Below the pieces are notes generated by a model. It made no database searches and was not told where the DNA came from. It worked only from the letters and a program-made list of their open reading frames with translations. From a virus, in the IMG/VR virus record IMGVR_UViG_3300025838_000001, positions 1 through 64,000 of that record: a DNA stretch of 64,000 bases; one strand, given 5' to 3'. This document shows positions 1-18,977 of this stretch, in pieces. Both the position numbers and the translations under genes were made by a program. The first letter of the stretch is position 1; each line of letters begins with the position of its first letter.

Positions 1-156
1 TACCTGATCCCTTACCTGATCCCATACCTGAGCCCTTACCTGATCCCCTACCTGAGCCCATACCTGAGCCCCTACCTGATCCCATACCTGAGCCCATACC
101 TGAGCCCCTACCTGATCCCTTACCTGATCCCTTACCTGAGCCCCTACCTGAGCCGG
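1..156. repeat. In-frame 12-nt tandem repeat, 13 units (TACCTGA[T/G]CCCN), runs off the window edge
   Basis: Direct reading: units at 1-12, 13-24 ... 145-156. Variation is almost confined to unit positions 8 and 12. Confidence 0.95.
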
Positions 157-414
157 ACTAATTACTTTTGCAAGCACCCCACTATTAAAAATATTTTTCA
201 AATAACCGACAGCATACTGGCAAGCCATAGGGGAGTCAACAAAAATAACTATAGGATTTTTGTATCCGGCTAATTGATACATCCAATTAATCCCCTTAAT
301 ACACTCTTCTTTATTTAATTCTGTTTTGCAAGAAAAAAAACGGTCTAGCCATTCATCCCTCACTTGATACATTAATTCAACTTGTTCGGGTGTTAATTTT
401 TCTATCTTATTCAT
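1..414 (-). CDS. Hypothetical protein, N-terminal part only; becomes Q-V-x-[A/D] tetrapeptide repeats
   Basis: ATG at 414 (MNKIEKLTPEQVELMYQVRDEWLDRFF...), open to position 1. Absent from the ORF track because there is no stop in the window. The repeat translates AQVGAQVRDQVRDQVGAQVWAQVWDQV... Confidence 0.7.
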   Translation of the reverse strand, partial: MNKIEKLTPEQVELMYQVRDEWLDRFFSCKTELNKEECIKGINWMYQLAGYKNPIVIFVDSPMACQYAVGYLKNIFNSGVLAKVISPAQVGAQVRDQVRDQVGAQVWAQVWDQVGAQVWAQVGDQVRAQVWDQVRDQV

Positions 415-420
415 ATTTGG

Positions 421-660
421 TTAGTTTAAAATTAATTGATCTTGCCATTGCTTCCAGTGTGGAGTCTCATCTACCACATCAAATAAATCAGCCTCAAATC
501 CAAAACGGCTACCGAATTCAATAAGGGTATAGTAAAACTTATCGTAATGGTATTCTACTGAAAGCAAATGGTATTTAGCCCCTTCAACAAGAATAGACTC
601 TACTTCTATACCTAATGTGCGATTAAATACCGGTGGTTCTTTGCAGATTAAAGTAGTCAA
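421..660 (-). CDS. Hypothetical protein (79 aa, TTG start)
   Basis: ORF track. Sits directly downstream of the duplicated promoter/operator element. No recognisable motifs. Confidence 0.45.
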   Translation of the reverse strand: MTTLICKEPPVFNRTLGIEVESILVEGAKYHLLSVEYHYDKFYYTLIEFGSRFGFEADLFDVVDETPHWKQWQDQLILN

Positions 661-678
661 GGTGGGTAGTTTTTAGAT

Positions 679-731
679 TGCTAAGATAATGTACATTACA
701 TTACAATCCAAATAAATTGAAAAATATTTTT
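679..731 (-). promoter_or_regulatory. 53-bp promoter/operator element, copy 1 (identical copy at 9013-9065)
   Basis: Identical 53-mer at two loci, each upstream of a minus-strand gene. Minus strand reads TTTG, then 20 nt, then TATCTTAG (near TAnnTTTG). A perfect 12-bp palindrome TAATGTACATTA (687-698) lies between the boxes. Confidence 0.6.
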
Positions 732-1140
732 ACACTTCTTTTATGTCTATATTATGCACCTTTTTCATCAACTTCTTCTTTTTCTTATACTCTTTAGTCA
801 GGTACCCCTTACAGTCCTCCACAATAACCAGACCGGTATGCTTATCTACATATTGGAAATCGGCTACATATACTAGGGAAAAAGATCCATCGGTGTTAAG
901 TTCGTACTCTACCTGCCTGGCTAAAAAGGCTATCTCCCCGGCTTTAAGTAATTTCTTCAAAACGGTGTAACGCCTAGCCTCTTTCTTGCTATCAAATACC
1001 TCCCCATCAACCTCCCCTTTCTGGCTGCTGTACTTATGTTTCTTTTCTTTTTTAGGTGGGTCTGTAAACAGGTGGGTATTGAGATTCCCTACGGCAGAAT
1101 TCTTAATATCTTCTATCGTAAATACCCTTCCCTTAGCCAT
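730..1140 (-). CDS. DUF1064-family phage protein (nuclease-fold)
   Basis: C-terminal pattern EVDGEVFDSKKEARRY...AGEI...YVADFQYV...VEDCKGYLTKEYKKKKKL matches DUF1064. Likely start is the ATG at 1140 (MAKGRVF), abutting the dnaB stop at 1142. Confidence 0.6.
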   Translation of the reverse strand: MAKGRVFTIEDIKNSAVGNLNTHLFTDPPKKEKKHKYSSQKGEVDGEVFDSKKEARRYTVLKKLLKAGEIAFLARQVEYELNTDGSFSLVYVADFQYVDKHTGLVIVEDCKGYLTKEYKKKKKLMKKVHNIDIKEV

Positions 1141-1141
1141 G

Positions 1142-2614
1142 TTAAAAAGGATTGGTGTCGTTGTCTGTGGAAGAAAATGTCTTTGGCATATTACCCTGGG
1201 AAATAGGCTTGAAATTAGACGGTAACCCGGTATCTGGCACTTCTTCAAATTTCTGTATCTCTAGCCTAGCCCTAAGCCTTGTGACTCCCAATTTCCCATT
1301 ACGGTTTTTTGCGGTCTTTATATGCGTTTCTCCTGCTGTAGAATCTCCGTTCTCGTTGGTGTCTATATCGTAGTATTCTGGCCGATAAATGAACATAACG
1401 CAATCCGAATCCTGTTCGAGACTACCCGACTCCCTCAGATCGCTAAGCATAGGCATTTTGCTTTCTTTGCGATTTTCTACTTGCCTGGATAGTTGAGATA
1501 ACGCAATGATTGGAACGTTTAACTCCTTGGCTATTATTTTAATATTCCTAGAAATGTTACTAATTTCTTGCTCCCGGTTACCTGATCGGTCTTTATCGCC
1601 AGACATAAGCTGCAAGTAATCAATAATGATTAAACCTACATTATGCTTATTCACCATCTTGCGAGACTTGGATCTAAAATCATAAATGTTTAATCCAGCG
1701 GTATCGTCTATGTAAATAGGAGCTTTCTCCATAATAGCAACCCCTTTTTCCATAAAACCTTTATACTCAAAATCAGATAAGGTTCCCCTTTGTACCCGTT
1801 CAAATAATATCCCAGACTCCGCTGATAGCATCCTGTTCATACACTGAGAAGCAGACATCTCCAAAGAAAAAAAACCAACCGGGGTGGGCTTTATTTTATG
1901 CAAGGCTGCGTTCTTAGCTAGATTTAAAGCCAACGCAGACTTCCCTATACTCGGTCTAGCTGCAATAATAATAAAATCAGTAGGCTGCCATCCGTAGGTT
2001 ATCTTATCCAGCGACTCAAACCCGGTAGGTACACCGGTAAATAAATCCTGAGAGTTTCTTTGCTGATCAATAATGCTTAGCGTCTTTGCTATAATAGAAG
2101 GAGCATCCTCAAAGTTCTTCTTCATTACGCTGTTAGCTATACCAAAAACATCTTTTTCTAGGCTATTGAGCAAATCAAATACGTCCGTGGTATCATCATA
2201 CCCCCTTTCGTAAAAATTACCCGATATGCGTATTATCTCCCTCTTTATGTGATATTGTAAAAGTATCCTTGCGTTCTGCTCTAAAGAAGCCGTTGAGGTA
2301 ACCCGGTCCTGTAACTTGGTAATAAAATAAGGGCCCCCGACAGAATCTAGCTCACCCATAGCTTTTAACTCTTCAACTACCGAAGTTAAATCTATGATCA
2401 TACTTCTACGGCTGAGCCCAACCATAGCCTTAAAAACCTTCTGGTGTTCTGTTTTGTAAAAACAATCCTGGTGAAGTATATCGGAAACTATCTCAAAAGC
2501 ATTAGGTTCTAAAGTAATAGCACCCAGTATAGTCTGTTCCAACTCTACTGCGTGTGGTAATACCTTATTAAAAGACATATCTGGTATGTCATCCGAGTGC
2601 TTTAATTTAGCCAT
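1142..2614 (-). CDS. dnaB: Replicative DNA helicase DnaB
   Basis: Walker A AARPSIGKSALALNLA, IIIDYLQLM, SQLSRQVE and LRESGSLEQDSD motifs. Likely start MAKLKHS at 2614, rather than 2683 as in the ORF track. Confidence 0.9.
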   Translation of the reverse strand: MAKLKHSDDIPDMSFNKVLPHAVELEQTILGAITLEPNAFEIVSDILHQDCFYKTEHQKVFKAMVGLSRRSMIIDLTSVVEELKAMGELDSVGGPYFITKLQDRVTSTASLEQNARILLQYHIKREIIRISGNFYERGYDDTTDVFDLLNSLEKDVFGIANSVMKKNFEDAPSIIAKTLSIIDQQRNSQDLFTGVPTGFESLDKITYGWQPTDFIIIAARPSIGKSALALNLAKNAALHKIKPTPVGFFSLEMSASQCMNRMLSAESGILFERVQRGTLSDFEYKGFMEKGVAIMEKAPIYIDDTAGLNIYDFRSKSRKMVNKHNVGLIIIDYLQLMSGDKDRSGNREQEISNISRNIKIIAKELNVPIIALSQLSRQVENRKESKMPMLSDLRESGSLEQDSDCVMFIYRPEYYDIDTNENGDSTAGETHIKTAKNRNGKLGVTRLRARLEIQKFEEVPDTGLPSNFKPISQGNMPKTFSSTDNDTNPF

Positions 2615-2615
2615 T

Positions 2616-3201
2616 TTATATCCCCCATTGATTAGCCATAGCGTTTGCGATACCAGGAAAAGTCTTTGATCTATTTTTTGCACTTGTGTTATCAGAGTAC
2701 CACTTTGGAAGCGTCTTGCCAGATGGAGTTGTTACAAAATCTCCTTTCTCTACAATATTAGTAGGCTTCAATAACGGTAACCCCGTAAGCCAAAGACAGG
2801 TAGTTTTTTGGTACCTGTCCCCAAATTGCCAAGGCTGAATTATTTGATCAGGCTTTCTATATTCAGTACTCATAATTCCAACTGGGTTTTCAATAGCCAT
2901 AACCGGAATCCCACAATTAACAATATCCATAAAAAACTTAATACCTTCTTGCTGTCTTCCATCCTCACGTTTCTTAGCAAAGTGCTTAGCTCCGGAAACA
3001 GCTAAATGAGTGCAAGGAGGAAAAAAAATAGCCATATCCCATTGCCCCCCCCCCAATCACTTTAAATATATCTTCTTGGTAATGCCATTCGGGGTGTCCT
3101 CCTGAACATGGAAGTATATCACAACTAAAAGCATTATGACCAAGCGCCCTAAATGCTTTACATACAGTTTGAGATTCTTCACACCCTATGAGTACATTCA
3201 T
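2616..3201 (-). pseudogene. C5-cytosine-methyltransferase-like gene split by a +1 frameshift in a G10 tract
   Basis: Frame A: MNVLIGCEESQ...DIFKVIGGG. Frame B: QWDMAIFFPPCTHLAVSG...AIENP...FPGIANAMANQW (PPC and ENP motifs). The frames join at the homopolymer 3045-3054. G9 would give one 194-aa ORF. Confidence 0.6.
3045..3054. repeat. C10/G10 homopolymer at the frameshift point of the methyltransferase-like gene
   Basis: Direct reading of attgCCCCCCCCCCaatcac. Confidence 0.95.
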
Positions 3202-3263
3202 GATAAATGGTGCAGGAAACCCACCGTGCTTTAGCAGCGGGATGAATGCGACCTGCTTTCGTT

Positions 3264-4601
3264 TTAGTTGTTTGAAAATGTTCCAAAGTGGAATGCTTTT
3301 TGAATATTTTTCAGTGCGATACTTTTTTTGTCTACAATCACTCTTCTGCCCAATTGATGAACTCCACCTGTTACTTTTCTTTCTCCTTCTATCCACACCA
3401 AATCCTTTGGCTGTATGGCATAACGCTGTTTGCGGATAGAAGGCGCAAAGCCTTTTCGATTGAGTTGCAATACCCGATTATTCTTGTGTTTCTGAATGAT
3501 CTCTACCGGCTCAATCCTTTGCTGATCGCCTCCACCGGCAATGACAAAAGCATCATTATAATGCGTCTTTTCTATCTGCAGTGCTATTCTGTTCACAAAA
3601 GTGATATAGCCGTAGCTTACTTTTAGATCAGGCACATCGGCCCAAAATTTCTTTCTGATAATAGCCATGTAGGTATTTGGCTTATAGCTTTTTGGTGCGG
3701 CTAATTTGAGTTTCTTTTGATGCAATCGGTCATGGCACTTTTTATGTAGTATTGCCAAGTTCTTTGCACGATTACTGCCGGTTTTATTTCTTTCCAGGCA
3801 GTGGTGAATATGTGATGGCTGGCCTTTAGTAAAGGGCTTATGGCATAATTGGCAACATCCCCTTTCTCTTGCCATCAGGTAGCTGCGCATATTCTGATAT
3901 CCGTACATATCACCCTGCTGATAATCCACACCTTCAATTTGAAAATTCTCAATTTTGGCAATATCGAAATTGGCTACTTCGATGGTAACACTACTGATGG
4001 GCAGTACTTTCTTTAACTGCCTGATGATCTTTAGATGGGTGTCATAACGCCGTTGGGTAGATGGCGGCAACCATCCTTCTTTTTTCTTACGATTCAAAAA
4101 ACGTGGTTTACGATACCAAAGTTTGTTCCTACGACCTCTGCGGTACATGCGTCTTTCAGTCAGCCGTTCAGAAGTCTTGCCATCCATAACTACGGTTCCA
4201 CAAGCAAGCTCTTGAGTTGCCGATACGCATGAATACCCAATATTCTGATAACCGCTATCAATACCCATCTGTACGTCCTGTATCTTGTTCTCACAAACAA
4301 AATTCAGGCGGATGGTAAAAGGATAACAGGTAACCACACTGGCTCTTTGAGATTTAAGCAGCTTGCGAGCTTTAGCCTGGCTACAGGGCATGAGCGGTGA
4401 TCCTTCAATGGATAATACATACACAACGGCTTTAGGCCCACCTGTATGTTGGTGTAGATCCACATCGAGATTGTTAGCAGAGGTTTTTGAGCCTGCCACA
4501 CTAAGAGTTTCCTCTTTGTTTAATGGCAGACCACAGTTGCTACGGACTTGTGGAGCATCCGTAGGTGTGTTCGTTGTCGTTCTCTTTGCTAACTGCTGCA
4601 T
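3264..4601 (-). CDS. iscB: IscB, RuvC-HNH RNA-guided nuclease (OMEGA system, Cas9 ancestor)
   Basis: PLMP domain VVYVLSIEGSPLMPC; RuvC-I GIDSGYQNIGYS; Arg-rich bridge helix RRMYRRGRRNKLWYRKPRF; RuvC-II VTIEVANFD; HNH CQLCHK...HIHHC...N...LHKKCHDRLH; RuvC-III THYNDAFVIAGG. The true start is probably the GTG at 4424 (386 aa). Confidence 0.9.
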   Translation of the reverse strand: MQQLAKRTTTNTPTDAPQVRSNCGLPLNKEETLSVAGSKTSANNLDVDLHQHTGGPKAVVYVLSIEGSPLMPCSQAKARKLLKSQRASVVTCYPFTIRLNFVCENKIQDVQMGIDSGYQNIGYSCVSATQELACGTVVMDGKTSERLTERRMYRRGRRNKLWYRKPRFLNRKKKEGWLPPSTQRRYDTHLKIIRQLKKVLPISSVTIEVANFDIAKIENFQIEGVDYQQGDMYGYQNMRSYLMARERGCCQLCHKPFTKGQPSHIHHCLERNKTGSNRAKNLAILHKKCHDRLHQKKLKLAAPKSYKPNTYMAIIRKKFWADVPDLKVSYGYITFVNRIALQIEKTHYNDAFVIAGGGDQQRIEPVEIIQKHKNNRVLQLNRKGFAPSIRKQRYAIQPKDLVWIEGERKVTGGVHQLGRRVIVDKKSIALKNIQKAFHFGTFSNN

Positions 4602-4693
4602 AAATTCTAAAATTTAGTGGCCCTCTAATCAACCAATTGCTCTTGCAGATCACTCCGCAAGCCCCTTAGGCTTTAGCCTAGGGGGTGATTGAC
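4425..4693 (-). ncRNA. Candidate IscB omega-RNA (HEARO-type) scaffold
   Basis: Lies immediately 5' of the IscB-homologous region. The first 59 annotated codons have no IscB counterpart. Hairpins at 4662-4684 (9 bp plus bulge) and 4540-4564 (7 bp). Inferred from position only, not from a covariance-model search. Confidence 0.5.
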
Positions 4694-5401
4694 CTACTTT
4701 TTCTTTTCAAGTATTTTCAAATACTTAGTATCGTTCTCAAAAATATAATCCCAGGTAACCTTCCAATCTGAACCATCATTTAGACCACGGTAAAAATTAT
4801 CTTTTTTTATCACCTCCAAGATACCGAAAAAGTCAAAAGCCTCCTCTTTTATCCGTGACCCAAACTTCTTCCTTCTGGATTCCGTGATAGATTCAATCTG
4901 TGGTAGCTTATAGTTCTGTGCAAATATGTTCCAGGCACTAGCGTAGGGTTCTATGAATTCAGGCTTATTGTTGGTGATAAATTCTTTTATCGCTATCCAC
5001 CGATCTGATGGTTTAGCCGGAAGGGATACCTCTAACAAAGACCACTTTTTCTCTAGTTCTTTATTAGGACGGTATGTACTTACCCGGTTAGCCGGCACCT
5101 TCTTTAAGGTACTAGGCTGTATGGTCTCCTCCCAAAAATAGTCCCCATCAGTAGCAAATAACTCACATTCGTTGATCATATCACTAATAATCAACTCTAC
5201 ATCTTCTGGTGGCACAAGCATCTGTGACCCTATGGCATCGTATAGATACTTCTTCAGTTGTAACTTATTCGACTCTTCTAGCTGCAGCATCTCTATGATA
5301 CGCCAATATATTCCGTACCCCACAGCCCCGTTTTTGCCAATCAGGGCTAGTAACTTAATGTTTTTTGTAGGGTCTAGCGGGTGAGGGAAACCTGCTTCCA
5401 T
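4694..5401 (-). CDS. DUF4373-domain phage replication protein (DnaD/replisome-organiser-like)
   Basis: N-terminus ...KLLALIGKNGAVGYGIYWRIIEMLQ matches the DUF4373 signature. Located in the helicase module. Confidence 0.6.
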   Translation of the reverse strand: MEAGFPHPLDPTKNIKLLALIGKNGAVGYGIYWRIIEMLQLEESNKLQLKKYLYDAIGSQMLVPPEDVELIISDMINECELFATDGDYFWEETIQPSTLKKVPANRVSTYRPNKELEKKWSLLEVSLPAKPSDRWIAIKEFITNNKPEFIEPYASAWNIFAQNYKLPQIESITESRRKKFGSRIKEEAFDFFGILEVIKKDNFYRGLNDGSDWKVTWDYIFENDTKYLKILEKKK

Positions 5402-5403
5402 AA

Positions 5404-5673
5404 CTATATCTTTTTGGGTTGTTCTGCCTTACCGTGCATCTTGTCCATATCCCGTAATCCACGGCTGTAGGCTTCTGATTCTATTTTTTTTATGAATTTA
5501 CTCATCTCGTTAGAAAACACAATCATATCTCCTGCACTCTTCTCTACTATCCTCCAGGCAAAAGCAACATTAACAGAAGTATAGTCCTTCTCTTGCTTAA
5601 AAGGTAAAGGATAGGGCTCCCTTGGGTCACCGACAGGAAACCTTGGATTTTCTTTAGTCTTTGGATGAGTCAT
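5404..5673 (-). CDS. Hypothetical protein
   Basis: ORF track. The ATG at 5673 forms an ATGA overlap with the upstream stop. Confidence 0.5.
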   Translation of the reverse strand: MTHPKTKENPRFPVGDPREPYPLPFKQEKDYTSVNVAFAWRIVEKSAGDMIVFSNEMSKFIKKIESEAYSRGLRDMDKMHGKAEQPKKI

Positions 5674-6029
5674 AATTTTTCCCAGAGGGTAGAAAAACAT
5701 CGGTGTGCCGTCACGTTCTTAACCGTAGCGTGTCCGACTTTCTTAATGAGATGCTGGTTTGCGGCCCGTACCACAACCCCGCCATACGCTCTTTTGCTTG
5801 GTGGTGACGTAATACGATTACTCAACTCACACCACAAACGAAAATCCTCTGCCTGGAACTTGTGTCCAGATGGGTATTCTCTCAGATAATCAACTAATAA
5901 GTTAAATGCCTTCTGAGCCCACTGGGGAGTCACCTGTTCCGCATGATCAATAGCCTGAGCGATACCAGCGTCTCTTAGCCTCTCGCCTTCAGCTATTATA
6001 TCAAGGATATTCGCTTGTGTGTAAGTCAT
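5670..6029 (-). CDS. Hypothetical protein (119 aa)
   Basis: ORF track; tight operon packing. Confidence 0.55.
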   Translation of the reverse strand: MTYTQANILDIIAEGERLRDAGIAQAIDHAEQVTPQWAQKAFNLLVDYLREYPSGHKFQAEDFRLWCELSNRITSPPSKRAYGGVVVRAANQHLIKKVGHATVKNVTAHRCFSTLWEKL

Positions 6030-6035
6030 TATAGA

Positions 6036-6341
6036 TTATTTTATTCCTAAAAACTTCTGGAACCAAGCTGTATATGGATTAGCAAACTTAGCCGGGTACT
6101 CCTGGATATTGTTAAGGATAAAATTGATATCATCCACAGTAAGGTAAATACCAGGCTTTCCTAATATACCAGATTGATACAAGGTGTTTCCTATCCGGAT
6201 AACCTTGTATTTCACCGTGTCAACAACTAAGGTGTCAGCTACCTTTTCAATAACTGGTTTTGCTGCAGGAACTCCCTTGCTTTGGGAAAAGCCGATAGTT
6301 GCAATCAACGCAAAAGCGATAAATAGAATTGTTTTTTTCAT
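6036..6341 (-). CDS. Small secreted protein (signal peptide)
   Basis: N-terminus MKKTILFIAFALIATIGFSQS looks like a cleavable Sec signal. Confidence 0.55.
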   Translation of the reverse strand: MKKTILFIAFALIATIGFSQSKGVPAAKPVIEKVADTLVVDTVKYKVIRIGNTLYQSGILGKPGIYLTVDDINFILNNIQEYPAKFANPYTAWFQKFLGIK

Positions 6342-6350
6342 GTTAAGTTA

Positions 6351-6851
6351 TTATAGTTCTTGTAATAAAATATCCGGTATGTATTTTAACTCATCCTTAG
6401 CTATTGATGGGTACATAGCTTTAAACCTTTCTACAATCTTTGGCCAGCACTTCAGATCCTGTATCTCAATCATCTTTCGATCATAGTTCCCGTGACAGTC
6501 TGTATTCCAAAAGCAAAGCTCAATAAAGTTTAACGGATGAGTAGCTATTGATTTAAACAGGTTTTTGGGGAGTATATGAGCAATGCTGTATTTATACCGC
6601 TTAGGATCATCCTTACATGTTTTACCACCACAATGCTCGCAAACACCAGTAAGCTCCTTTCTTCTTTCAATAAACCATAGATTCAATTCCTCAGCATGTG
6701 CTTTTTCCGTTGATTCCTTAGCCTTATTCTTCTCGCTAACCTTTGGTATCACATACACCTTTTTCTCAGCCTTCTCACCTTTAGGCTTATGCCTTGGGCA
6801 GTATTGACCATCGGGTGCATGAAATGAACAACCAGGGAATATGCAGGACAT
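6351..6851 (-). CDS. Cys-rich zinc-binding, HNH/NinG-like protein
   Basis: CxxC...CPRH at the N-terminus; CEHCGG...AHILPK...N..ELC...CHGNYD resembles a degenerate HNH-type core. Confidence 0.3.
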   Translation of the reverse strand: MSCIFPGCSFHAPDGQYCPRHKPKGEKAEKKVYVIPKVSEKNKAKESTEKAHAEELNLWFIERRKELTGVCEHCGGKTCKDDPKRYKYSIAHILPKNLFKSIATHPLNFIELCFWNTDCHGNYDRKMIEIQDLKCWPKIVERFKAMYPSIAKDELKYIPDILLQEL

Positions 6852-7777
6852 TACTCTTGAATTAAAGCTACCAATGAATTTATATGATGCGATATAACAA
6901 AGTGTACCATCTCAACAAACTCCATAAGATCAGGTTCAAAAAACTCAGGAAATTCAATCTTTCGCAAATCGTGTACCAATCGCTTCAGACTTTCATTATC
7001 CGCTTCGATCTTAGCAACCTGTTCGTTTATCTTTTCGTGATTAAAAACAAAAGACTGATACCCTCCGTTTTCTGTGACATAAAAGCTAAACGTTTCCCCA
7101 CTCATAATTTTATTATGGATATGTGGGTGTAAGTGCTCCTGAGCCTTCTCAACAGGCGAAATAACTATCTTTGAAACAAGTGGATTGGCTTCAATAATTA
7201 TCGGATATTCTTTCCATTCAGAAATCTTTTCCTGTTCTTTTTTTAAGGCTTCTTCATCTTCCTTCCTTTTCTTCTCGTCTGCCATGCGATTAAACTCTGC
7301 TATTTCCCATGACTTCTTAGCCTCTGCAGCAAACTTCTCAAAATCTTTAGTGGACATCTTTTTTACAACAGCGTAGTCGTATATGCAGTGATACTTACCT
7401 AACTCGTCTATACGAGCCTGTATCTTCTCTTCTGCCAGCCTTTCTTTCTCTGCTTCTATCCTATCCTCCTCAGCCTGCAAAGGAGCCTCTAGTTCCTTCA
7501 TAGCGGCCACAAGCGGTGTAAGTTCAGAGTTAACCCTCCGCTGCCAGGCAAGCGCCTCTTCTTTGAGTTTATCCGCATGTTCAACAAGTGCTACTCTAGT
7601 CCTTTTGATCTCCAAACGAGTTTCACGCACTAAGGCTAACCCTTTGGTGTCTTTTACATCTTTAACCTTCAAACCGGTTGCCTTTTTACGAAAGGCTTCT
7701 ATAGCAGCGGCAGACTCGCTGAACTTTACTAACTCATTCTGCTGGTTGGGCTGAAGTATCACTACCGGGGTATCCAT
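6851..7777 (-). CDS. Coiled-coil protein of the recombination/replication module
   Basis: Long E/K/A-rich heptad-like segments. Positioned between a zinc-ribbon protein and the nuclease-like protein. Confidence 0.5.
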   Translation of the reverse strand: MDTPVVILQPNQQNELVKFSESAAAIEAFRKKATGLKVKDVKDTKGLALVRETRLEIKRTRVALVEHADKLKEEALAWQRRVNSELTPLVAAMKELEAPLQAEEDRIEAEKERLAEEKIQARIDELGKYHCIYDYAVVKKMSTKDFEKFAAEAKKSWEIAEFNRMADEKKRKEDEEALKKEQEKISEWKEYPIIIEANPLVSKIVISPVEKAQEHLHPHIHNKIMSGETFSFYVTENGGYQSFVFNHEKINEQVAKIEADNESLKRLVHDLRKIEFPEFFEPDLMEFVEMVHFVISHHINSLVALIQE

Positions 7778-8081
7778 CTAACTGTTTTTTAAACGTGTTA
7801 AAATATGCTTGTTTATCTCCTGTTTGCAGGTATAATCCTATTGACTCATCCTCTCTCTGTTCCTTTTGTATTGCCTTTCTTATCCTTTCTTCTTCCGTAA
7901 CAATCTTTCTTGGCTTGATCACTCGAACCGGCTTGGGTTTCAAATCTGCCTCTGTTCCTTCTATTACATTCATTGCTGATTTACATTGAGGACAAACACC
8001 TTCGTTTGGTCCATCCTCATCAAAACCAAATATTGCTAGATGGTTGAAGTGTATGTTACAAGATGTACAGACGTAACTCAT
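7734..8081 (-). CDS. Zinc-ribbon protein
   Basis: CTSC...(24 aa)...CPQC pair. Confidence 0.5.
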   Translation of the reverse strand: MSYVCTSCNIHFNHLAIFGFDEDGPNEGVCPQCKSAMNVIEGTEADLKPKPVRVIKPRKIVTEEERIRKAIQKEQREDESIGLYLQTGDKQAYFNTFKKQLDGYPGSDTSAQPAE

Positions 8082-8087
8082 TTAATA

Positions 8088-8711
8088 TCAAAACGGTAAA
8101 TCGTCTAAAGGTTCTTTTAATTCTGCCGGATTTTGAATTGAATTTTCCTTAGACAATCCCGATTCTGTACCAGGCTGATCAAACTCAGTCTCTCCTTCAG
8201 CCAAGAACTCAGAAACAAAAGTTAAACTCAACAACCATTTCTTCCAGAACTCAATCTGTTTAGATCCGTCCCATTCAACATCACCCTTCCACTCACGGCT
8301 TTCCACCGGAGGAAGTTCACCCATGTTATCCTTAGTAAAAGCGTGTTTAAGCGGCTTCCCTGATTGAGTAACAAAACAGGTTGTTTGTGGCTTACCATCT
8401 TTTAATTTATGGCTGGCAGATATACGAACTTTCATCGTAGGATCACCAGTACGCAGGGAATTGCAAAAACCACGGAAGTATCCGCTGTCTGTACGCATCT
8501 GCAATAAAAACCGTTCCCCTTTGTCTACTATTGTAAACTGGGCAACCTCATACTTCTTACCATTGTACTCGTCCTGTTTAAAATCCACCTTAACGATAGT
8601 GCCGGAGAGTGATTGGAAGAAGTCTGGCTCACCACCTTTCTCTTTGGTGTACAGTTTGCCCTCTTTGATATTGACATACGTAACTCTTCCTGAATCTTTT
8701 TCAAGTCCCAT
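8088..8711 (-). CDS. Single-stranded DNA-binding protein (non-canonical body, canonical acidic tail)
   Basis: C-terminus ...EPLDDLPF is the SSB-type protein-interaction tail. Beta-rich N-terminal body; replication-module context. Confidence 0.55.
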   Translation of the reverse strand: MGLEKDSGRVTYVNIKEGKLYTKEKGGEPDFFQSLSGTIVKVDFKQDEYNGKKYEVAQFTIVDKGERFLLQMRTDSGYFRGFCNSLRTGDPTMKVRISASHKLKDGKPQTTCFVTQSGKPLKHAFTKDNMGELPPVESREWKGDVEWDGSKQIEFWKKWLLSLTFVSEFLAEGETEFDQPGTESGLSKENSIQNPAELKEPLDDLPF

Positions 8712-8818
8712 TTTGTTTTTGTTTTATGTTTTTTACGGAAAATGTTTTCAATATACTCTTTACTGTGACCACTGGCCGCTAGTGAAAGAGCCTCCATAGC
8801 GTCATCGGTTATCATACC

Positions 8819-8968
8819 CTACTTCTTTTTGTTTTTCCTTGCCGCCAAAGCCTCCTGAACAAGGAGACATACCATGCTGCTAAAAGAAGTCTCTCTCTTC
8901 TCCTTAGCCCTTTCCTTATGTACTTCCGCTATTACGGTATCTGGGAAAGACGAGTTGATCTGTGCCAT
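8819..8968 (-). CDS. Small basic protein (49 aa), possible RHH-type regulator
   Basis: ATG at 8968, TAG at 8819-8821 (MAQINSSFPDTVIAEVHKERAKEKRETSF...). Below the ORF-track cutoff. First gene downstream of promoter/operator copy 2. Confidence 0.4.
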   Translation of the reverse strand: MAQINSSFPDTVIAEVHKERAKEKRETSFSSMVCLLVQEALAARKNKKK

Positions 8969-9012
8969 TGATTTTTGTTTGGTGAATAATACTTTTCTGA
9001 CATGTATTGAAA

Positions 9013-9065
9013 TGCTAAGATAATGTACATTACATTACAATCCAAATAAATTGAAAAATATTTTT
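9013..9065 (-). promoter_or_regulatory. 53-bp promoter/operator element, copy 2
   Basis: Identical to 679-731; palindrome TAATGTACATTA at 9021-9032. Confidence 0.6.
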
Positions 9066-9153
9066 TAGGCGGGTAGAATTTAGCGTATAGGGACCGTGGC
9101 ATAATCGAGTACCAAGCCCACGCACAGACCCTTTGCTTCTCTTTTTAGCGAAA

Positions 9154-9297
9154 GTTTTGATCAATAATAGTTTTTACTTTCACGGGAGATTCTTGGCTTT
9201 TAAAAGCACCGAAAAGAAAGATAATCAGAAAGGAAATGGGAAAGCTAATAACTAATCTTTATGTTAAATGGCGCACAGCGAACTTCCTTGTTTTTTT
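9154..9297 (+). repeat. Inverted-repeat arm L (44-nt perfect core 9154-9197, then diverged blocks)
   Basis: The core GTTTTGATCAATAATAGTTTTTACTTTCACGGGAGATTCTTGGC is the exact reverse complement of 10676-10719. Further shared blocks: AAAAG[C/T][A/G]CCGAAAAGAAAGA, AAATGGGAAAG, TAATAACT, TTATGTTA, AACTTCCTTGTTTTTTT. Confidence 0.9.
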
Positions 9298-9366
9298 CCC
9301 ACGCTTCACTTGTAACGGTGAGGAGTATTAAAGGGAGAAACAATGACAAGTCATTGTGTGGAGTTT

Positions 9367-10272
9367 CTAATTAAAAAGTTCAGGAGGTTTGCTATCGTTT
9401 CGAGAATTGTGTTTTAAAATCTTTGTTACTACATAAGATTTATTTACAAAAGTATTTGCTATTGCATCATATTCCATTAAAATATCCATTTCAACTTCTA
9501 GTGTATCTCCCAATCTAAACGCTTCGCCTTTTTCTATTTTCCCCGAAAAAGCATCATCGTTTATTTTGGCAACTATTCTATTCCCTTTATAATAGAACTC
9601 CCACTTCTTTTTTAGAGAAAAATCAATTCCGCCTATAATGTTTAAAAGTGCGTCTTGAACTGTTTCATTTTTTTGGGTAGGCCCAATTTTATCTGACCCA
9701 GATTGAGCAATATCTGCGAAATCTTCTTTTGGTATTTCAACTGAATTTTCTTTGTTTTTAGGATCAATTACCTCAAATCCAGTAACACCATTATCCGCAT
9801 CTAATGTTTCAAAAGTTTGTGACATGTGCTTTTCGATTGCACTATTTTGATATATTTTATATACCCTATTGTCAATGTAGGTAACATTTCCTTTTACATC
9901 CTCAATTTTTACTCCATTATTTGTTGTTTCAATATTCTTTGGGCTTTTCCCTTTTAGAAATTTGAATATTTTATACGCACCCGTTAAAAGACCAATAACA
10001 TCTTTGGCATGGGTTAAGTTTTCATGGGTAAAAAGTTGAGCTACATTTTGTATGCTTTGAGATAAAATAATTAAATCTATTTCAAAACTTCCGGGCTTCG
10101 GACTGGCGTTAATTCTGACTTCTATTTTTTTTGTTTCATCTATCTCTGCACTTATTTCTTGTATGATAGCTGTAAAGTGCAGAAAAGAATTAATAAAGGT
10201 ATTAGCCTCTATTTGGTGAGATGGGCCATCAAATTTTACTTTTAACTCTTGCATACCCGTAACATTAGACAT
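9367..10272 (-). CDS. Orphan 301-aa protein, unknown function, AT-rich cargo between the inverted repeats
   Basis: Long ORF that is visibly more AT-rich than its flanks. Own TACTTTTG -7 box (complement of 10353-10360). 8-bp hairpin ACAATGAC..GTCATTGT lies just 3' of the stop. No motif recognised. Confidence 0.7.
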   Translation of the reverse strand: MSNVTGMQELKVKFDGPSHQIEANTFINSFLHFTAIIQEISAEIDETKKIEVRINASPKPGSFEIDLIILSQSIQNVAQLFTHENLTHAKDVIGLLTGAYKIFKFLKGKSPKNIETTNNGVKIEDVKGNVTYIDNRVYKIYQNSAIEKHMSQTFETLDADNGVTGFEVIDPKNKENSVEIPKEDFADIAQSGSDKIGPTQKNETVQDALLNIIGGIDFSLKKKWEFYYKGNRIVAKINDDAFSGKIEKGEAFRLGDTLEVEMDILMEYDAIANTFVNKSYVVTKILKHNSRNDSKPPELFN

Positions 10273-10480
10273 ATAAATAGATTTGGTTGCGGGGGGAGAT
10301 ATTAAACTTAAAGATTATAATTGATTCCCTAACCTTCTATTTTTTAATAGAACAAAAGTACAGTATTATACTAAAAATTTAGAATAAACTACTATAAAAT
10401 ATAAATTAATTAGGATAAAACACTTTGGTGCCCATGGGGCACCCCTTCCCAATTGATTATAGCGAAGGGCCCCGCCACAC

Positions 10481-10719
10481 AAAAAAACAAGGAAGTTCTT
10501 CCCGCAACGTGGCTTTTTTAAGCTACGCAAAATAAAAAAGCCCCTTCACAGGGGCTAACCAAGTAACATAATGTTGAGTTATTATCTTTCCCATTTATCT
10601 GTTTAAACTCTTTCTTTTCGGCACTTTTAGGGATTTTGTCCCACCTACACATTACCTGGAAAACAAAATCCCTACGCCAAGAATCTCCCGTGAAAGTAAA
10701 AACTATTATTGATCAAAAC
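10481..10719 (-). repeat. Inverted-repeat arm R (44-nt perfect core 10676-10719, diverged blocks, two arm-specific insertions)
   Basis: Block-by-block alignment to arm L. Arm R-specific insert 1 is a 12-bp perfect hairpin (10628-10674). Insert 2 carries back-to-back terminators (about 10473-10556). Confidence 0.9.
10529..10556 (-). terminator. Rho-independent terminator inside arm R
   Basis: Minus strand: AGCCCCT-GTGA-AGGGGCT followed by TTTTTTATTTT. No protein gene lies upstream on that strand. Confidence 0.6.
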
Positions 10720-10809
10720 AATGCCTTCGTGAAATATTTTTCATAAAATTTTATAAATATTTTTCTTCCAGTAGCCCTGTGGGTATTTTATAGTCTAAAA
10801 ATAATCACC

Positions 10810-11028
10810 ATGGCTTCAAATGCGTTTAAAGTAAACGTCTACGAGATCAACGGTATTCCGCAGAAAAACATCTATCAGATCGGTTTCCCAGATTCCGGTG
10901 CGTGTTTGTTTTTAAACTACACGGGTAATAACCCTTTGTGTAATGCGTATGTACAAACGTTGAGTAATCAGTACCAGTATTCTGTTGCTGAAACTGTAGC
11001 GGCTCTGGTTACCCTGGCTAACACCTAG
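10810..11028 (+). CDS. Hypothetical protein (72 aa)
   Basis: ORF track; followed by a terminator. Confidence 0.5.
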   Translation: MASNAFKVNVYEINGIPQKNIYQIGFPDSGACLFLNYTGNNPLCNAYVQTLSNQYQYSVAETVAALVTLANT

Positions 11029-11054
11029 TGGTAATTGAGTTAAGAACCTATTAA

Positions 11055-11082
11055 ATAGCCCTGCTTGTTGGGGCTATTTTTG
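11055..11082 (+). terminator. Rho-independent terminator
   Basis: ATAGCCC-loop-GGGCTAT followed by a T-run. Overlaps the stop of the convergent gene 11074-11463. Confidence 0.55.
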
Positions 11083-11463
11083 TTCCCTTTCATTAGCCCT
11101 TAACTCTATGAGAGGAACACCTTTAGACTCCATTTCTTCCAGCTCCGCATCTGTGTTGGTATTCAAGTATTTTTTACGCAAACTGATCACCGCTGCAAAC
11201 GTGTCTTCCATCTTCTTAACCATCTCCTGATAGTTTTTTATTGAATTGTCTTCAAGTGATAACTTAGATCCGTTTAACACCTTGGCCATCTCATTATTTT
11301 TTCTGTTCATGGCAAAATAAAGAGCAAACGGACTGTCTTTTTCAAAGCTGTCTACTACGTCCCGGAGGTATTCATTTTCTTCCGTTAAAGCGGCTATTTT
11401 TTGCGATTCCGTCATCTCGCCAGTAGGCTTTTTTTCAGGTATTCTTGTTTTTGTCGTTCCCAT
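11074..11463 (-). CDS. Hypothetical coiled-coil protein (129 aa)
   Basis: ORF track. Confidence 0.55.
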   Translation of the reverse strand: MGTTKTRIPEKKPTGEMTESQKIAALTEENEYLRDVVDSFEKDSPFALYFAMNRKNNEMAKVLNGSKLSLEDNSIKNYQEMVKKMEDTFAAVISLRKKYLNTNTDAELEEMESKGVPLIELRANEREQK

Positions 11464-11537
11464 TATTCAAAAATATTTATAAATTTTTTGTATAAAAAAT
11501 TATTTTAAAAATATTTATTCATTACTTTGTAGGCGTT

Positions 11538-11759
11538 ATGAATCAACCTAAACTCACAAAAGAAGCCGGTTACTTCCTGTTGGAGAACCCGGACCTTCTG
11601 GTAGAAGCCGCAAAAATGACCGGTATTAGCTATGCAGGTGTTACCTCTGCGGCTAAGAGAAGATCCACAACGCTTACTACCTACCACTTGGTAATGCTCC
11701 TGTCACGGAGAATGTACTTACCCCCTGAAAAAATAGTTGAGATAACTGAAAAGCAATAA
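11538..11759 (+). CDS. Small HTH-like protein, first gene of the chaperonin operon
   Basis: AAKMTGISYAGVTSAAKRR is a helix-turn-helix-like segment. Its stop lies 2 nt before groES. Confidence 0.4.
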   Translation: MNQPKLTKEAGYFLLENPDLLVEAAKMTGISYAGVTSAAKRRSTTLTTYHLVMLLSRRMYLPPEKIVEITEKQ

Positions 11760-11761
11760 TT

Positions 11762-12046
11762 ATGATTCCTATTGACAACAGAGTGCTTATCCTCCCTGAA
11801 CCTGCAGAAGACAAAGGACAGTTTATAACACCAGATACGGCTAGGCCAAAACCCATGAGAGGGAAAGTTATTGCCGTAGGTGCCGGGGAAAGGCGTAAAT
11901 CAGACGGAGGTCTTATGCCTATGACCTGTGAGGTGGGAGATACTGCCGTGTACTCTAAGTTTGGTGGGACAGATGTGGAGATTGATGGAGTCGAGTATGT
12001 GGTTATGAAAGAAAGCGAAGTATTAATGGTTCTTAAACCCGAATGA
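11762..12046 (+). CDS. groES: Co-chaperonin GroES (Cpn10)
   Basis: MIPIDNRVLILPEP...KPMRGKVIAVGAGER...EVGDTAVYSKFGGTDVEIDGVEYVVMKESEVLMVL aligns along the whole Cpn10 pattern. Confidence 0.85.
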   Translation: MIPIDNRVLILPEPAEDKGQFITPDTARPKPMRGKVIAVGAGERRKSDGGLMPMTCEVGDTAVYSKFGGTDVEIDGVEYVVMKESEVLMVLKPE

Positions 12047-13647
<1,601 letters not shown>

Positions 13648-13648
<1 letters not shown>

Positions 13649-16853: not shown

Positions 16854-16883
16854 GCCCCGGTTCCATTGCCGGGGCTTATTTTT
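16854..16883 (+). terminator. Hairpin plus T-run between 15872-16831 and terL
   Basis: GCCCCGG-loop-CCGGGGC followed by TTATTTTT. Confidence 0.5.
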
Positions 16884-18977
16884 ATGTTACAGAAGATAAC
16901 CATATACGGTATTGAGGGTGAGATACCCGATGTTCCTAAGCTAAACACAATAGAGGGGCATGATTTACCTATAGAAGAACAGTACTTCCGTAGGCGTGAA
17001 CTACCTGTGTACATGCAGGCAGAAAATATCGTTTTTGATGATGACGGGGACCCGATATACACTGATCAGCAATTAGCCTATGCCAAGGAAGAACTAGACC
17101 GATGTGAGCATGGCCACTGGGTTATGATCAAAGGAGTACCTACGTTTTTTAACATGTGGTACTACTATTGGCTAACTTACTGGACCTTGGAAGATGGAAA
17201 CCGACCAGAGCACCGGGAATGTGACAGGATATTCTTTTTATTTTTCCAGTTTTGTTATCGAAATCCGTTTATAGCTGGGATTCTTAGAGGAAAGGCTAGA
17301 CGGGAAGGGGCTACATCTCATGGTACGTGCATAGAGATGCACATAGCTACTTTTGATTATAACAAGCGTATTGGTAATATCTCAAAGACCGGTCCGGACG
17401 TATCGGATATGTTTACCAATATGATTGTTTACGCTTTTAAAGCGCTGCCTATATTTCTAAGACCACGTACTGACGGTCCAGAAGATCCTAAAAATGAAAT
17501 ATCGTTTAAGCGCCCAACAAAAAAGAAAAGCCAGAAAGGGGTAGCCGATACCTCCCGGAAAGGTCTTAACTCGATAATCACTAAGCGTGACACTACCCTA
17601 AACTCATACGACTCAGGTAGATGGTCTTTTATCCTGATAGATGAAGGCGCAAAATGGATAAGTGTTAATATTTCTAAATACTGGAACATTGTAAAACAAG
17701 TGTTAGTAAGGGGTGCCTCCCGTGTGGGCTTTGCTTATTTGCCCACTACGGTCAATCCTCCGAACCAAGGGGGCTCTAATTTCCGTACCCTGTATAATCT
17801 AGCTGACCAGTTTAAATACCCGCTAAATCGGCTCCCTAAAGGCTTGGTGAAGTATTTCAAGCCGGCTTATGACGGATTATCTGGGTTTATTGATAAATAC
17901 GGGCACAGTATCATTGAACCACCTGATGAAAAAACACTAGAGTTTTTAATACAAAAAAACCGGGAGGCTAAAGAAGAAGAGCGTATACCAGAAGAGTATT
18001 TAAACCTAGGGGCTAAACAATACCTGGCTTACAAGCGATCTCTGCTAGAGGACGATGACGATATATCCGAAGAAAAAAGGATGTACCCCGTTATCGAATC
18101 CGACATGTTTGACTTCGGAGATGTGATCAGTCCTTTCTCTATTGAAAAGATAGAAGCCCAGGAAGCATGGCTTAAAGAAAATCCTCAGCCGCTAAGACGG
18201 GGTGATTTTGTTTACAACATGATCACCAAAAAAGTAGAGTTTCAGGATAATAAAAAAGGCTTCTGGCTATTACGTAAAACACTTAACGATGGGGAGTCTA
18301 ATAAATTCAGCATTGATGCCAGAAATGTGTGTCACCCGCTAAATACCCATAACTACGGTGGGGGTGCCGATACCTTCAGGTTTGACAATACCCAGGAACT
18401 AGGTTCTAAGGGTACCATCTGGATAGGTAGTAAACTTGATATAAGCAAACCGGAAGAGCAGGAAGGCGGCGAACCTGTTGCTTTCTACATAGGCCGGCCT
18501 AAGCTGACGGAAATGTTCTGGCGGGAGTTGTTACTAGCCTCACTTTACTACGGGTGTACAATCACAGTCGAAAAAGATGCTACCCAGGAATTCATTAAAT
18601 ACTTTCAGGGGACTATGCCCAATTTTATGCAGGCTAACTGCTTGCCGATGCTGGGTAAAAAGCCTGATATCGCTATTGATCAGACAAGAAAAAGAAACAA
18701 AGACAAGGATATGGGTTACGGAGCTTCTTCTGCCGATCCTTTTGTATTTGCTAAACAGATAGAAATTGCTGTACTGTATGTCTATAAATACTGCTACAAA
18801 ATACACTATCCGGATCTGCTCGCTGAACTAAAGATGTTTGACCCGTCTAACCGGACACAATTTGACCAGACTATCGGGTTTATGATGATGCTCCTTAACT
18901 GCATGGGAGACTTCCAGCAAAGAAAGATTGAGAAAAAGAAGTTTAAGCTACTTCGCTATTACCAAAAAGTAGCCTAA
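16884..18977 (+). CDS. Terminase large subunit (candidate)
   Basis: Walker-A-like GKARREGATS and Walker-B-like SFILIDEGAKW. About 700 aa; convergent with the portal-like gene. The ATG at 16884 is preferred over the TTG at 16866, which lies in the terminator. Confidence 0.6.
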   Translation: MLQKITIYGIEGEIPDVPKLNTIEGHDLPIEEQYFRRRELPVYMQAENIVFDDDGDPIYTDQQLAYAKEELDRCEHGHWVMIKGVPTFFNMWYYYWLTYWTLEDGNRPEHRECDRIFFLFFQFCYRNPFIAGILRGKARREGATSHGTCIEMHIATFDYNKRIGNISKTGPDVSDMFTNMIVYAFKALPIFLRPRTDGPEDPKNEISFKRPTKKKSQKGVADTSRKGLNSIITKRDTTLNSYDSGRWSFILIDEGAKWISVNISKYWNIVKQVLVRGASRVGFAYLPTTVNPPNQGGSNFRTLYNLADQFKYPLNRLPKGLVKYFKPAYDGLSGFIDKYGHSIIEPPDEKTLEFLIQKNREAKEEERIPEEYLNLGAKQYLAYKRSLLEDDDDISEEKRMYPVIESDMFDFGDVISPFSIEKIEAQEAWLKENPQPLRRGDFVYNMITKKVEFQDNKKGFWLLRKTLNDGESNKFSIDARNVCHPLNTHNYGGGADTFRFDNTQELGSKGTIWIGSKLDISKPEEQEGGEPVAFYIGRPKLTEMFWRELLLASLYYGCTITVEKDATQEFIKYFQGTMPNFMQANCLPMLGKKPDIAIDQTRKRNKDKDMGYGASSADPFVFAKQIEIAVLYVYKYCYKIHYPDLLAELKMFDPSNRTQFDQTIGFMMMLLNCMGDFQQRKIEKKKFKLLRYYQKVA

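Follow-up and report, generated by a model that had tools for sequence, protein, structure and literature searches.

The segment between positions 3202 and 4693 (minus strand) of the window, i.e. the whole 64,000-nucleotide stretch of viral DNA analysed here, is very likely a non-autonomous insertion sequence of the IS200/IS605 superfamily (IscB/ISC type), inserted in the same orientation as the genes of a phage replication operon, with selfish homing or retention as its likely role. The element comprises 1,492 bp, contains no transposase gene and is typical of a family that was already known; IscB/HEARO elements in viral contigs have already been published (PMC9755519). The window carries terminase, portal and virion proteins and belongs to an uncultured phage, the host of which is probably a member of the Bacteroidota. 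Megablast of positions 1–12000 against deposited phages gave no match, indicating that there is no close reference genome.

The element encodes a complete IscB (3264–4601, 445 aa, ATG start), an RNA-guided nuclease of the type ancestral to Cas9, with a match far beyond chance. The ORF lies on the minus strand, which had been left unstated in the original prediction. That prediction had claimed an IscB with all hallmarks in canonical order and had proposed profile searches as a check. The IscB, RRXRR and HNH models were all passed: NCBIfam equivalog NF040563 ‘RNA-guided endonuclease IscB’ with 291.2 bits (cutoff 175; aa 60–355 of the ORF), Pfam RRXRR with 194.7 bits (cutoff 25; E 1.5e-57) and Pfam HNH with 29.6 bits (cutoff 21.4; E 7.7e-7). 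IscB chains in the PDB were matched by the ORF at E 1e-32 to 1e-36 (phmmer) and by the family profile at E 1e-49 to 1e-54. All quoted motifs were present in the order given. Within the canonical IscB body (aa 59–445, window 3264–4427), the PLMP domain (aa 59–73, VVYVLSIEGSPLMPC, aligning with OgeuIscB residues 2–16) is followed by RuvC-I (GIDSGYQNIGYS, aa 113–124), an Arg-rich bridge helix (aa 150–168), RuvC-II (VTIEVANFD, aa 205–213), the HNH insert that separates RuvC-II from RuvC-III (aa 250–295; CQLCHK at aa 250–255, HIHHC at 264–268 and LHKKCHDRLH at 285–294) and RuvC-III (THYNDAFVIAGG, aa 346–357).

The catalytic residues, which had been described as intact, indeed form a complete RuvC and HNH set. 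Those of RuvC (D115, E208, H347 and D350) show no variation among 25 relatives and lie in motifs that align with the RuvC segments of OgeuIscB. In the HNH domain they are H266/H267, N281 and H290, accompanied by the cysteines Cys250/253/289; positions C250, C253, H266, H267, N281, C289, H290 and H294 are invariant in the same 25 relatives. The protein is predicted to perform RNA-guided, TAM-dependent double-strand cleavage, the TAM being the motif that must adjoin the target. Across the clade, third codon positions of the IscB core were the most variable, which is normal coding-type conservation.

Domain order, catalytic residues and the HEARO-type RNA are shared with OgeuIscB and the other solved IscB-omega RNA complexes (PDB 7UTN, 7XHT, 8CSZ, 9K30). 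However, the window protein is ~20–30% identical to these, carries a 58-aa N-terminal extension and has a C-terminal region, the putative TAM-interaction domain of the original prediction, that did not align to the solved IscBs by sequence in a family-profile comparison. Residues ~380–445 are conserved within the clade and were modelled as beta strands (pLDDT 73–88) in an overall poor model: the AlphaFold prediction from 25 close relatives was of low confidence (pLDDT 52.5). The top ten Foldseek matches obtained with this low-confidence model were all IscB/IsrB. A length of 445 aa leaves no room for a REC lobe, so the protein must lack one. CRISPR-Cas9 (type II) was considered and rejected, given this length, the marginal matches to Cas9 structures and the lack of an array-like repeat family in the window. 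On the practical side, the locus supplies one more compact (387–445 aa) IscB with a clear RNA partner.

The ORF starts ~58 codons before the canonical IscB body, which begins at aa 59–60, and its first ~49 codons (1–49) overlap the omega RNA. In 42 of 42 clade members the frame of this extension is open, although its length takes 10 different values, and none of the 42 has either of the other two frames open; we therefore rejected the possibility that the extension is a gene-caller artefact. Codon-type conservation is absent from the 58 aa, indicating that the sequence is dictated by the RNA.

An associated RNA, on which the original prediction also depended, was found directly upstream of iscB. 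The omega RNA scaffold (4454–4693, minus strand) matched the Rfam HEARO model RF02033 over its full length (model 1–211) with 119.9 bits (gathering score 83, E 3.4e-24). The omega RNA of relatives begins at the identical boundary, and none was found in the IscB-free syntenic phages L024 and L029. The omega-RNA end of the element folds into a strong hairpin (z = -3.3). By the known IscB architecture (PMC10055086), the guide would be 5’-TGAAAAGAAAAAGTAG-3’ (4694–4709, minus strand), outside the element, with a length of 16 nt assumed from characterised IscBs. These are the final 16 nt of the upstream Lin1244_N/DUF4373 gene, TAG stop included. Within the 64-kb window no second site for this 16-mer was detected beyond chance. 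A promoter and terminator scan around the element yielded sites no more numerous than in shuffled sequence.

Both ends of the element could be placed by comparison with relatives. Similarity begins sharply at 4693, with unrelated flanks upstream, and in ~30 elements with all different flanks the 5’ boundary is equally sharp at GTCA(A/G)TCA. The last bases at the omega-RNA end are TTGAC (4689–4693, plus strand), GTCAA being the 5’ end of the RNA. At the other end, the iscB stop codon is followed by a TAM-proximal tail of 62 nt (3202–3263, minus strand) with a conserved two-tier stem-loop, GCAGG..TTCATC[CCGCTGC-TAAA-GCACGGTGG]GTTTCCTGC. This tail is common to relatives in unrelated contexts; L033, for instance, has unrelated flanks and the same 3’ tail and following motif as the window. 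In 19 elements, compensatory changes were present in 6 of the 7 predicted pairs of the TAM-proximal stem. The hairpin of the window copy is imperfect and folds no better than shuffled sequence (not significant). The element has discrete ends that recur in unrelated contexts and no terminal inverted repeats, and its flanks (AAGTAG and ATGAAT) show no target duplication.

The predicted TAM, ATGAAT (3196–3201, minus strand; TTCAT at 3197–3201 on the plus strand), abuts the element and includes the methyltransferase start codon. ATGAA(T/A) follows the element in the window, L033, L035, L040 and L044, in four different contexts, and ATAAA follows it in more distant relatives. The ATGAAA found after three close relatives fits the published NWRRNA TAM of OgeuIscB. 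We read TTCAT as the TAM because of this recurrence and because it matches the TTCAT TAM of the ISGst5 IscB (PMC10055086). That the end of the element itself supplies the methyltransferase start codon was rejected: ATGAA stands after the element in four other contexts too and equals a known TAM, so it belongs to the flank. Between the TTGAC end and the TAM, 2 of 5 positions do not agree, and by the logic of PMC10055086 the phage’s own locus should thereby escape cutting.

In silico removal of the element joins TAG directly to ATG, giving AAGAAAAAGTAGATGAATGTACTC as the reconstructed element-free junction. Such reconstructed empty sites are sensible gene junctions in three independent contexts: the window (TAG followed by ATG), TraG (stop and start overlapping in ATGA) and L116 (TAAA followed by ATG).

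Using an HMM built from the TnpAs adjacent to distant IscBs, no Y1 (HUH) TnpA was detected within the 64-kb window at E <= 10. Most IscB copies are non-autonomous (PMC10055086), so the lack of TnpA is compatible with a non-autonomous IS605-family member. Likewise, the complete clade members sampled had no TnpA within 3 kb; a truncated clade copy (L141) has TnpA beside IscB.

Gene annotation bore out the neighbours named in the original prediction, DUF4373 on one side and a methyltransferase and DnaB on the other. Upstream lies the Lin1244_N (DUF4373) gene (4694–5401, minus strand), replication or helicase-loader-like, whose stop codon abuts the element. Downstream are a DNA methyltransferase-like gene (phrog_757; 2616–3201, minus strand), frameshifted in a C10 run at 3045–3054, and the DnaB gene. 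The methyltransferase-like ORF was named by PHROGs only; Pfam and NCBIfam gave no match, even after frameshift correction. The original prediction had described iscB as a passenger in a phage operon and not in a chromosomal IS. The phage context is real, but the passenger is itself an IS605-family element of the usual kind, complete with both its ends.

The comparison with related phages that had been suggested did reveal empty DUF4373-methyltransferase junctions. In IscB-free syntenic phages, DUF4373 is directly followed by a methyltransferase and DnaB. The methyltransferase in these phages (L024–L032) is a different (PF00145) gene, so nucleotide-exact boundaries cannot be obtained from them. 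They have three guide mismatches and no adjacent ATGAA, and hence would not be targets. An element-free allele of the phage itself was not found: exact-protein look-ups with the two flanking genes yielded no contigs other than filled or uninformative ones, the reconstructed junction had no exact match in IMG/VR, and the scan of a single metagenome gave distant DUF4373 homologues only. The element is fixed in ~19 contigs of the phage from several samples, with no presence/absence polymorphism.

The closest IscBs (78–86% identity) are located on conjugative plasmid or ICE-like contigs and in other contexts, which indicates recent mobility. IscB homologues are present in 31 deposited phage genomes. 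Clade loci numbered 70 in viral contigs versus 37 in a genome collection of far greater size. In many viral and plasmid copies of the clade, the transposase-binding tail has disappeared and the omega RNA has been kept; the plasmid copies examined have kept the flanking ATGAA as well.

Experimentally characterised counterparts are the ISGst5-type IscB elements (IS200/IS605 superfamily) found in Geobacillus stearothermophilus (Meers et al. 2023, PMC10055086). These likewise have the omega RNA upstream, a flank-derived guide, a TTCAT TAM at the opposite end, an RNA-end motif 2 positions off the TAM and structure at both ends, and most copies lack TnpA. The proposed role for such elements is cutting of the element-free junction, leading to recombinational re-copying (PMC10055086). 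However, ISGst5 resides in the chromosome whereas the window copy resides in a phage operon; moreover, the window protein belongs to a distinct clade in which the ORF starts ~58 codons earlier, inside the omega RNA. More than 16% of HEARO-bearing fragments were classed as viral or prophage (Goltsman et al. 2022, PMC9755519), and Clostridium phage c-st is another phage with an RNA-guided IscB on its genome; insertion site, guide and TAM were not dissected in either report. The c-st copy belongs to a clade without the N-terminal extension, and TnpA remnants are present beside its IscB.

A selfish role in RNA-guided homing or retention is likely for the element, judged from its anatomy, since the putative guide and TAM together specify exactly the junction of an element-free phage. 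In the model that we propose, the operon transcript would carry ~16 nt of flank (TGAAAAGAAAAAGTAG) ahead of the scaffold and be bound by IscB. The complex would recognise the 16-mer only with ATGAA directly after it, a combination expected only in an element-free genome, where the DUF4373 TAG abuts the methyltransferase ATG. The phage’s own genome would be spared, as the 16-mer there precedes GTCAA. The copy that is cut could be that of a co-infecting relative, or one from which the element has been excised by a host TnpA. Recombinational repair from an element-bearing genome would then copy the element in. To jump to new sites, the element would depend on a Y1 TnpA that the host provides in trans. 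This TnpA would insert beside TTCAT, which is an ATGAA gene start on the other strand, so that the element would come to lie precisely where one gene's stop codon meets the next gene's start codon, with neither gene broken. Guide length, TAM and cleavage activity are in each case predicted.

It is unlikely that the element is an inactive relic, a stranded insertion that neither cuts nor moves and is carried passively. Such a relic would agree with the lack of a transposase in cis, the lack of presence/absence polymorphism among recovered contigs, the weak TAM-proximal hairpin of the window copy and the frameshift in the neighbouring methyltransferase. However, the ORF is uninterrupted and has all catalytic and zinc-binding residues that do not vary among 25 relatives, the omega RNA matches the full-length model with a score far exceeding the threshold, the core shows coding-type conservation across the clade, and TAM and ends are intact.

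Domestication of IscB as a phage weapon, with the host chromosome, a host defence locus or unrelated competitor elements as its target, is very unlikely. Fixation in all recovered contigs of the phage from several samples and location in an early/replication operon would suit a weapon, and the tail loss of many viral clade copies could be what a domesticated gene looks like. Yet the window copy keeps both structured ends, nothing but the adjacent flank occupies the guide position, which holds for every IS605-family element, the flanks at this position are unrelated in relatives, and the window contains no further match to the 16-mer beyond chance. The original prediction had also offered the host or competitors as targets; this option is unsupported, the putative guide being flanking sequence.

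An ordinary protein-guided HNH homing endonuclease, the label used by phage annotation pipelines, carried by deposited phage homologues and suggested by the best PHROG matches (families named ‘HNH endonuclease’), is effectively refuted by the insertion of the HNH in a split RuvC together with a PLMP domain and bridge helix, by the IscB equivalog match and the alignment to solved IscB-omega RNA complexes, and by the cognate RNA upstream.

Free-standing homing endonuclease genes of T-even phages (SegA-G, Mob) are known to spread by ‘intronless homing’. As in these, the nuclease gene of the window is wedged between conserved phage genes and is predicted to cut element-free co-infectors and to spread by repair. 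In contrast to the T-even genes, recognition would depend on an RNA guide and a TAM and would hinge on whether the insert is there or missing and not on polymorphic sequence; in addition, the window element keeps transposon ends. A wider and more tentative possibility, which we consider somewhat doubtful at present, is that the Bacteroidota phage/plasmid clade whose ORF starts inside the omega RNA is as a whole a transposase-independent RNA-guided homing element. Observations in favour are the lack of a nearby TnpA, the loss of the tail, the 70 versus 37 loci and the phage and plasmid copies with 78–86% identity.

The current understanding of IscB biology is not changed by this locus. Whether OMEGA elements home from one co-infecting phage or plasmid to another has hitherto been discussed only in theory (review PMC13565253), and the locus offers a fully specified test case for it: a 1.5-kb element with a predicted 16-nt guide and a predicted ATGAA TAM, a predicted target of 22 bp (TGAAAAGAAAAAGTAG plus ATGAAT) and a predicted protected self site (the 16-mer plus GTCAAT). 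With a TAM that also serves as start codon, the element would be able to sit between tightly packed genes without damage. The presence of near-identical elements in phage and conjugative plasmids points to a possible route by which RNA-guided nucleases pass between kinds of mobile element. If the clade does home without transposase, it would parallel the T-even free-standing homing endonuclease genes in an RNA-guided form, spreading between co-infecting genomes by cutting junctions of a stop codon with an ATGAA start codon, and this would allow it to reside inside essential operons without cost.

The original prediction placed an IscB gene at 3264-4601, and an ORF of 445 aa with an ATG start was indeed present there, on the minus strand, with all the quoted IscB motifs in the order claimed. 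The proposed search with IscB profiles gave a match of 291 bits (cutoff 175, aa 60-355) to the NCBIfam equivalog NF040563, 'RNA-guided endonuclease IscB'. Pfam matches were obtained to RRXRR (E 1.5e-57, aa 60-230) and HNH (E 7.7e-7, aa 250-295), the canonical IscB body begins at aa 59-60, and phrog_119, named 'HNH endonuclease', matches the protein at 4.6e-57. Among solved IscB chains, a single-sequence search matched TbaIscB at 1.5e-36 and OgeuIscB at about 3e-32; with a 25-sequence profile, solved chains were matched at 1e-49 to 1e-54. The catalytic residues had been described as intact, and in the 25-sequence alignment the RuvC residues (D115, E208, H347, D350) and HNH residues (C250, C253, H266, H267, N281, C289, H290, H294) are invariant and fall in motifs that align with the RuvC and HNH parts of OgeuIscB. 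An AlphaFold model from this shallow alignment was poor (pLDDT 52.5); its top ten PDB matches were all IscB or IsrB complexes.

The associated RNA was also found. A whole-length match to HEARO, the Rfam model of omega RNA, runs upstream of the ORF from 4693 to 4454 on the minus strand (119.9 bits, gathering score 83); no other Rfam family was matched within the window. The 5' end of this RNA lies one base past the upstream gene's stop codon, and the RNA overlaps codons 1-49 of the ORF. IscB has a 58-codon N-terminal extension, specific to the clade of relatives whose ORF begins inside the omega RNA; the clade also conserves the C-terminal domain (about aa 380-445), a putative TAM-reading domain that does not align to solved IscBs. 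Across the 42 distinct members that were selected as aligning from the N-terminus, the frame of the extension is always open, down to 43% identity and through ten different lengths, and the two other frames are always closed. Three or four more clade members apparently lack the extension. Codon-position periodicity is absent from it (0.32/0.37/0.30, versus 0.37/0.28/0.56 in the core). The RNA dictates the sequence of the extension, and its translation is apparently preserved. In the window (4427-4601, minus) and the 42 related loci, the ORF starts at an AUG that is conserved and lies within the omega RNA; about 58 codons precede the canonical start at PLMP, in a frame that stays open despite changes in length. 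Because conservation is not of the codon type, this region is dual-use, with the RNA dictating the peptide.

Relatives of this IscB (61-86% identity) occupy unrelated sites. In addition to other viral contigs, these include a conjugation operon, TraG-TraJ, carried by a Rep3 contig (its copies are in part binned as Sediminibacterium), a contig with ParB and another that is SSB/TraG-like. At the omega-RNA end, similarity is sharp from GTCA(A/G)TCA (window 4693) in all relatives, the sequence upstream is unrelated, and the 5' end of HEARO falls on the boundary base in each. At the other end, the 62 nt past the iscB stop are common to the window and locus L033, and L044 is loosely alike. The architecture of this tail (outer stem, TTCATC internal loop, inner hairpin and TCTTCTTGC-like return) also occurs in a more distant set, and compensatory changes were seen in six of seven predicted pairs (19-sequence alignment); the fold in the window copy alone was no better than that of shuffled sequence. 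Directly past the tail, every close relative has ATGAA (ATGAAT in the window and L033, ATGAAA in L035, L040 and L044); in more distant elements the motif is ATAAA or GATAAA. Where identical elements lie in different contexts (the pairs L077/L078 and L091/L092), identity runs through this motif and is lost directly after it. On the plus strand the order is TTCAT (3197-3201), the element from 3202 with iscB and omega RNA, TTGAC (4689-4693) and the flank. With TTCAT at one end and TTGAC, differing from it at two positions, at the other, the element is 3202-4693 (1,492 bp), as defined by the recurring ends and the TAM arrangement. The flank at the omega-RNA end would supply the guide TGAAAAGAAAAAGTAG (4709-4694, minus), whose length here, 16 nt, we assume from characterised IscBs.

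In the IscB and TnpB elements of G. stearothermophilus, TnpA and the nuclease both read the TAM, which lies against one end of the transposon, and the guide is drawn from the flank at the opposite end (PMC10055086). The TAM of ISGst5 IscB is TTCAT; the RNA-end motif departs from the TAM at just two positions, and the locus of the element itself is thereby protected (PMC10055086). IscB omega RNAs are positioned upstream of the ORF (Meers et al., PMC10055086). The window element resembles the CHARACTERISED system in the TTCAT abutting one end, the two-position difference at the RNA end, the upstream omega RNA and the guide from the flank at that end.

In silico removal of 3202-4693 left GAA AAG AAA AAG TAG on one side of the junction and ATG AAT GTA CTC on the other, so that the DUF4373 stop codon abuts the methyltransferase start codon. 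Removal from plasmid copies (L039 type) gave a classic ATGA stop/start overlap of TraG and the next gene, and in L116 TAAA followed by ATG. Because these three independent junctions are sensible, they support the boundary calls; they show a putative insertion rule, the element landing immediately 5' of an ATGAA gene start. In the TraG-TraJ operon copies (L035-L043; Rep3 or Sediminibacterium-binned contigs, locus about 4914-6346), IscB shares 78-84% identity with the phage copy; there is no structured tail, and only 8 nt separate the iscB stop from the ATGAAA of the next gene. Insertion there displaced the ATGA overlap, so that TraG ends four codons inside the element.

'Empty' DUF4373-methyltransferase junctions, suggested as a check in the original prediction, were found in syntenic phages (DUF4373 62-63% identical) with the order DUF4373, methyltransferase, DnaB, DUF1064 ... 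DUF5672. These phages lack iscB, no HEARO was found in them, and the first two genes are 17 nt apart or overlapping. Their methyltransferase is a different gene, of PF00145 type, and the gene ends (e.g. GGAGAAGAAAAAGTAA in L024) have three mismatches to the guide and no adjoining ATGAA. These phages show the insertion to be derived, but offer no exact empty site and are unlikely targets.

The phage setting of iscB was confirmed by a large terminase (16866-18977), a portal (18974-21331) and virion proteins; GroES (94 aa) and GroEL (532 aa; phrog_5725, E 1e-143) are encoded at 11762-13648. Its neighbours are those named originally, the Lin1244_N/DUF4373 gene (4694-5401) on one side and a methyltransferase-like gene and DnaB (1142-2614) on the other, all on the minus strand. 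No close relative was found among deposited phages. About 19 metagenome contigs from several samples, a 71-kb JGI contig among them, contain the identical region, each time with the element.

The methyltransferase-like gene (2616-3201, minus) is frameshifted in a C10 run at 3045-3054 (G10 on the gene strand), of the same length in five assemblies. With G9 it encodes a single 194-aa protein that phrog_757, 'DNA methyltransferase', matches from end to end (E 1e-64); the gene could be phase-variable, be expressed through slippage or be a fixed pseudogene. An exact 53-bp direct repeat (679-731 and 9013-9065, both intergenic, 8,334 bp apart) flanks the entire minus-strand replication block including the element, and may be a site of recombination or a promoter/regulatory site present twice. 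The window edge (1-168) holds about 14 copies, in tandem, of a 12-nt unit (TACCTGATCCCN) that on the minus strand would encode a four-residue, Gly-rich repeat (roughly Gly-Ser-Gly-X); this probably belongs to a fibre or collagen-like protein that runs off the window. A very large structural gene (1,616-aa ORF, 25091-29941) has exact direct repeats of 300 nt and 55 nt at 25379-28106, spaced 987 and 1,395 bp, which suggests a recent duplication of domains within it.

A search of the 64-kb window with an HMM made from Y1 TnpAs adjoining distant IscBs, including the Clostridium phage c-st copy, found no Y1 TnpA at E <= 10. Likewise, none lay within 3 kb of complete clade members; TnpA adjoins IscBs of the distant clade and one truncated, unclassifiable copy (L141). 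By its predicted gene content the element is non-autonomous; most IscB copies are (PMC10055086). In several viral loci (L098, which is phage c-st, L086, L089, L096, L100-L106 and L113), Y1 TnpA or fragments lie directly downstream of an iscB of the distant clade, without N-terminal extension. Some phage-borne IscB elements are therefore autonomous, or were until recently. In L001, a viral IscB copy (66% identical) is followed directly by a 277-aa ORF (5486-6319) that resembles by eye the C-terminal half of TnpB, and this locus would hold two OMEGA-type elements side by side.

The original interpretation was supported overall: an intact IscB and its cognate RNA in a derived phage-operon insertion. 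We observed, with them, recurring discrete ends, a flank-derived guide position and a conserved flanking motif; comparison has shown a derived insertion with no recognisable transposase of its own. The RNP would cut TGAAAAGAAAAAGTAG where ATGAA comes next, a combination expected only in an element-free genome, and would spare the phage's own copy, which has GTCAA instead. Repair off an element-bearing genome would then copy the element in, and new insertions would need host TnpA. A second target within the phage is argued against, since no further guide site beyond chance was found in the window. The same pattern search gave 70 loci from IMG/VR versus 37 from a far larger genome collection, in which the close relatives are all on MAG contigs. 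The structured tail is absent from many viral and plasmid copies, and in several of these the next gene begins about 10-30 nt past the iscB stop. Together with the clade-specific extension, these counts and tail-less copies leave room for a transposase-independent homing lifestyle of the clade, which we propose tentatively, as the less probable course.

IscB in viral genomes is already published, over 16% of HEARO-bearing fragments being viral or prophage (Goltsman et al. 2022, PMC9755519), and the element is not a new kind of system. Homologues are present in 31 deposited phage records, mostly labelled 'HNH endonuclease' or 'hypothetical', and in 88 plasmids, where most among the matches listed are annotated iscB. 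Homing between co-infecting phages or plasmids is discussed as a theoretical extension in a 2026 review (PMC13565253), and no report of phage homing by IscB was found in the literature searched. In this phage operon the element is a canonical IscB-omega RNA insertion sequence, non-autonomous and apparently functional, and it offers a clean test case, with every part specified, for RNA-guided homing among phages.
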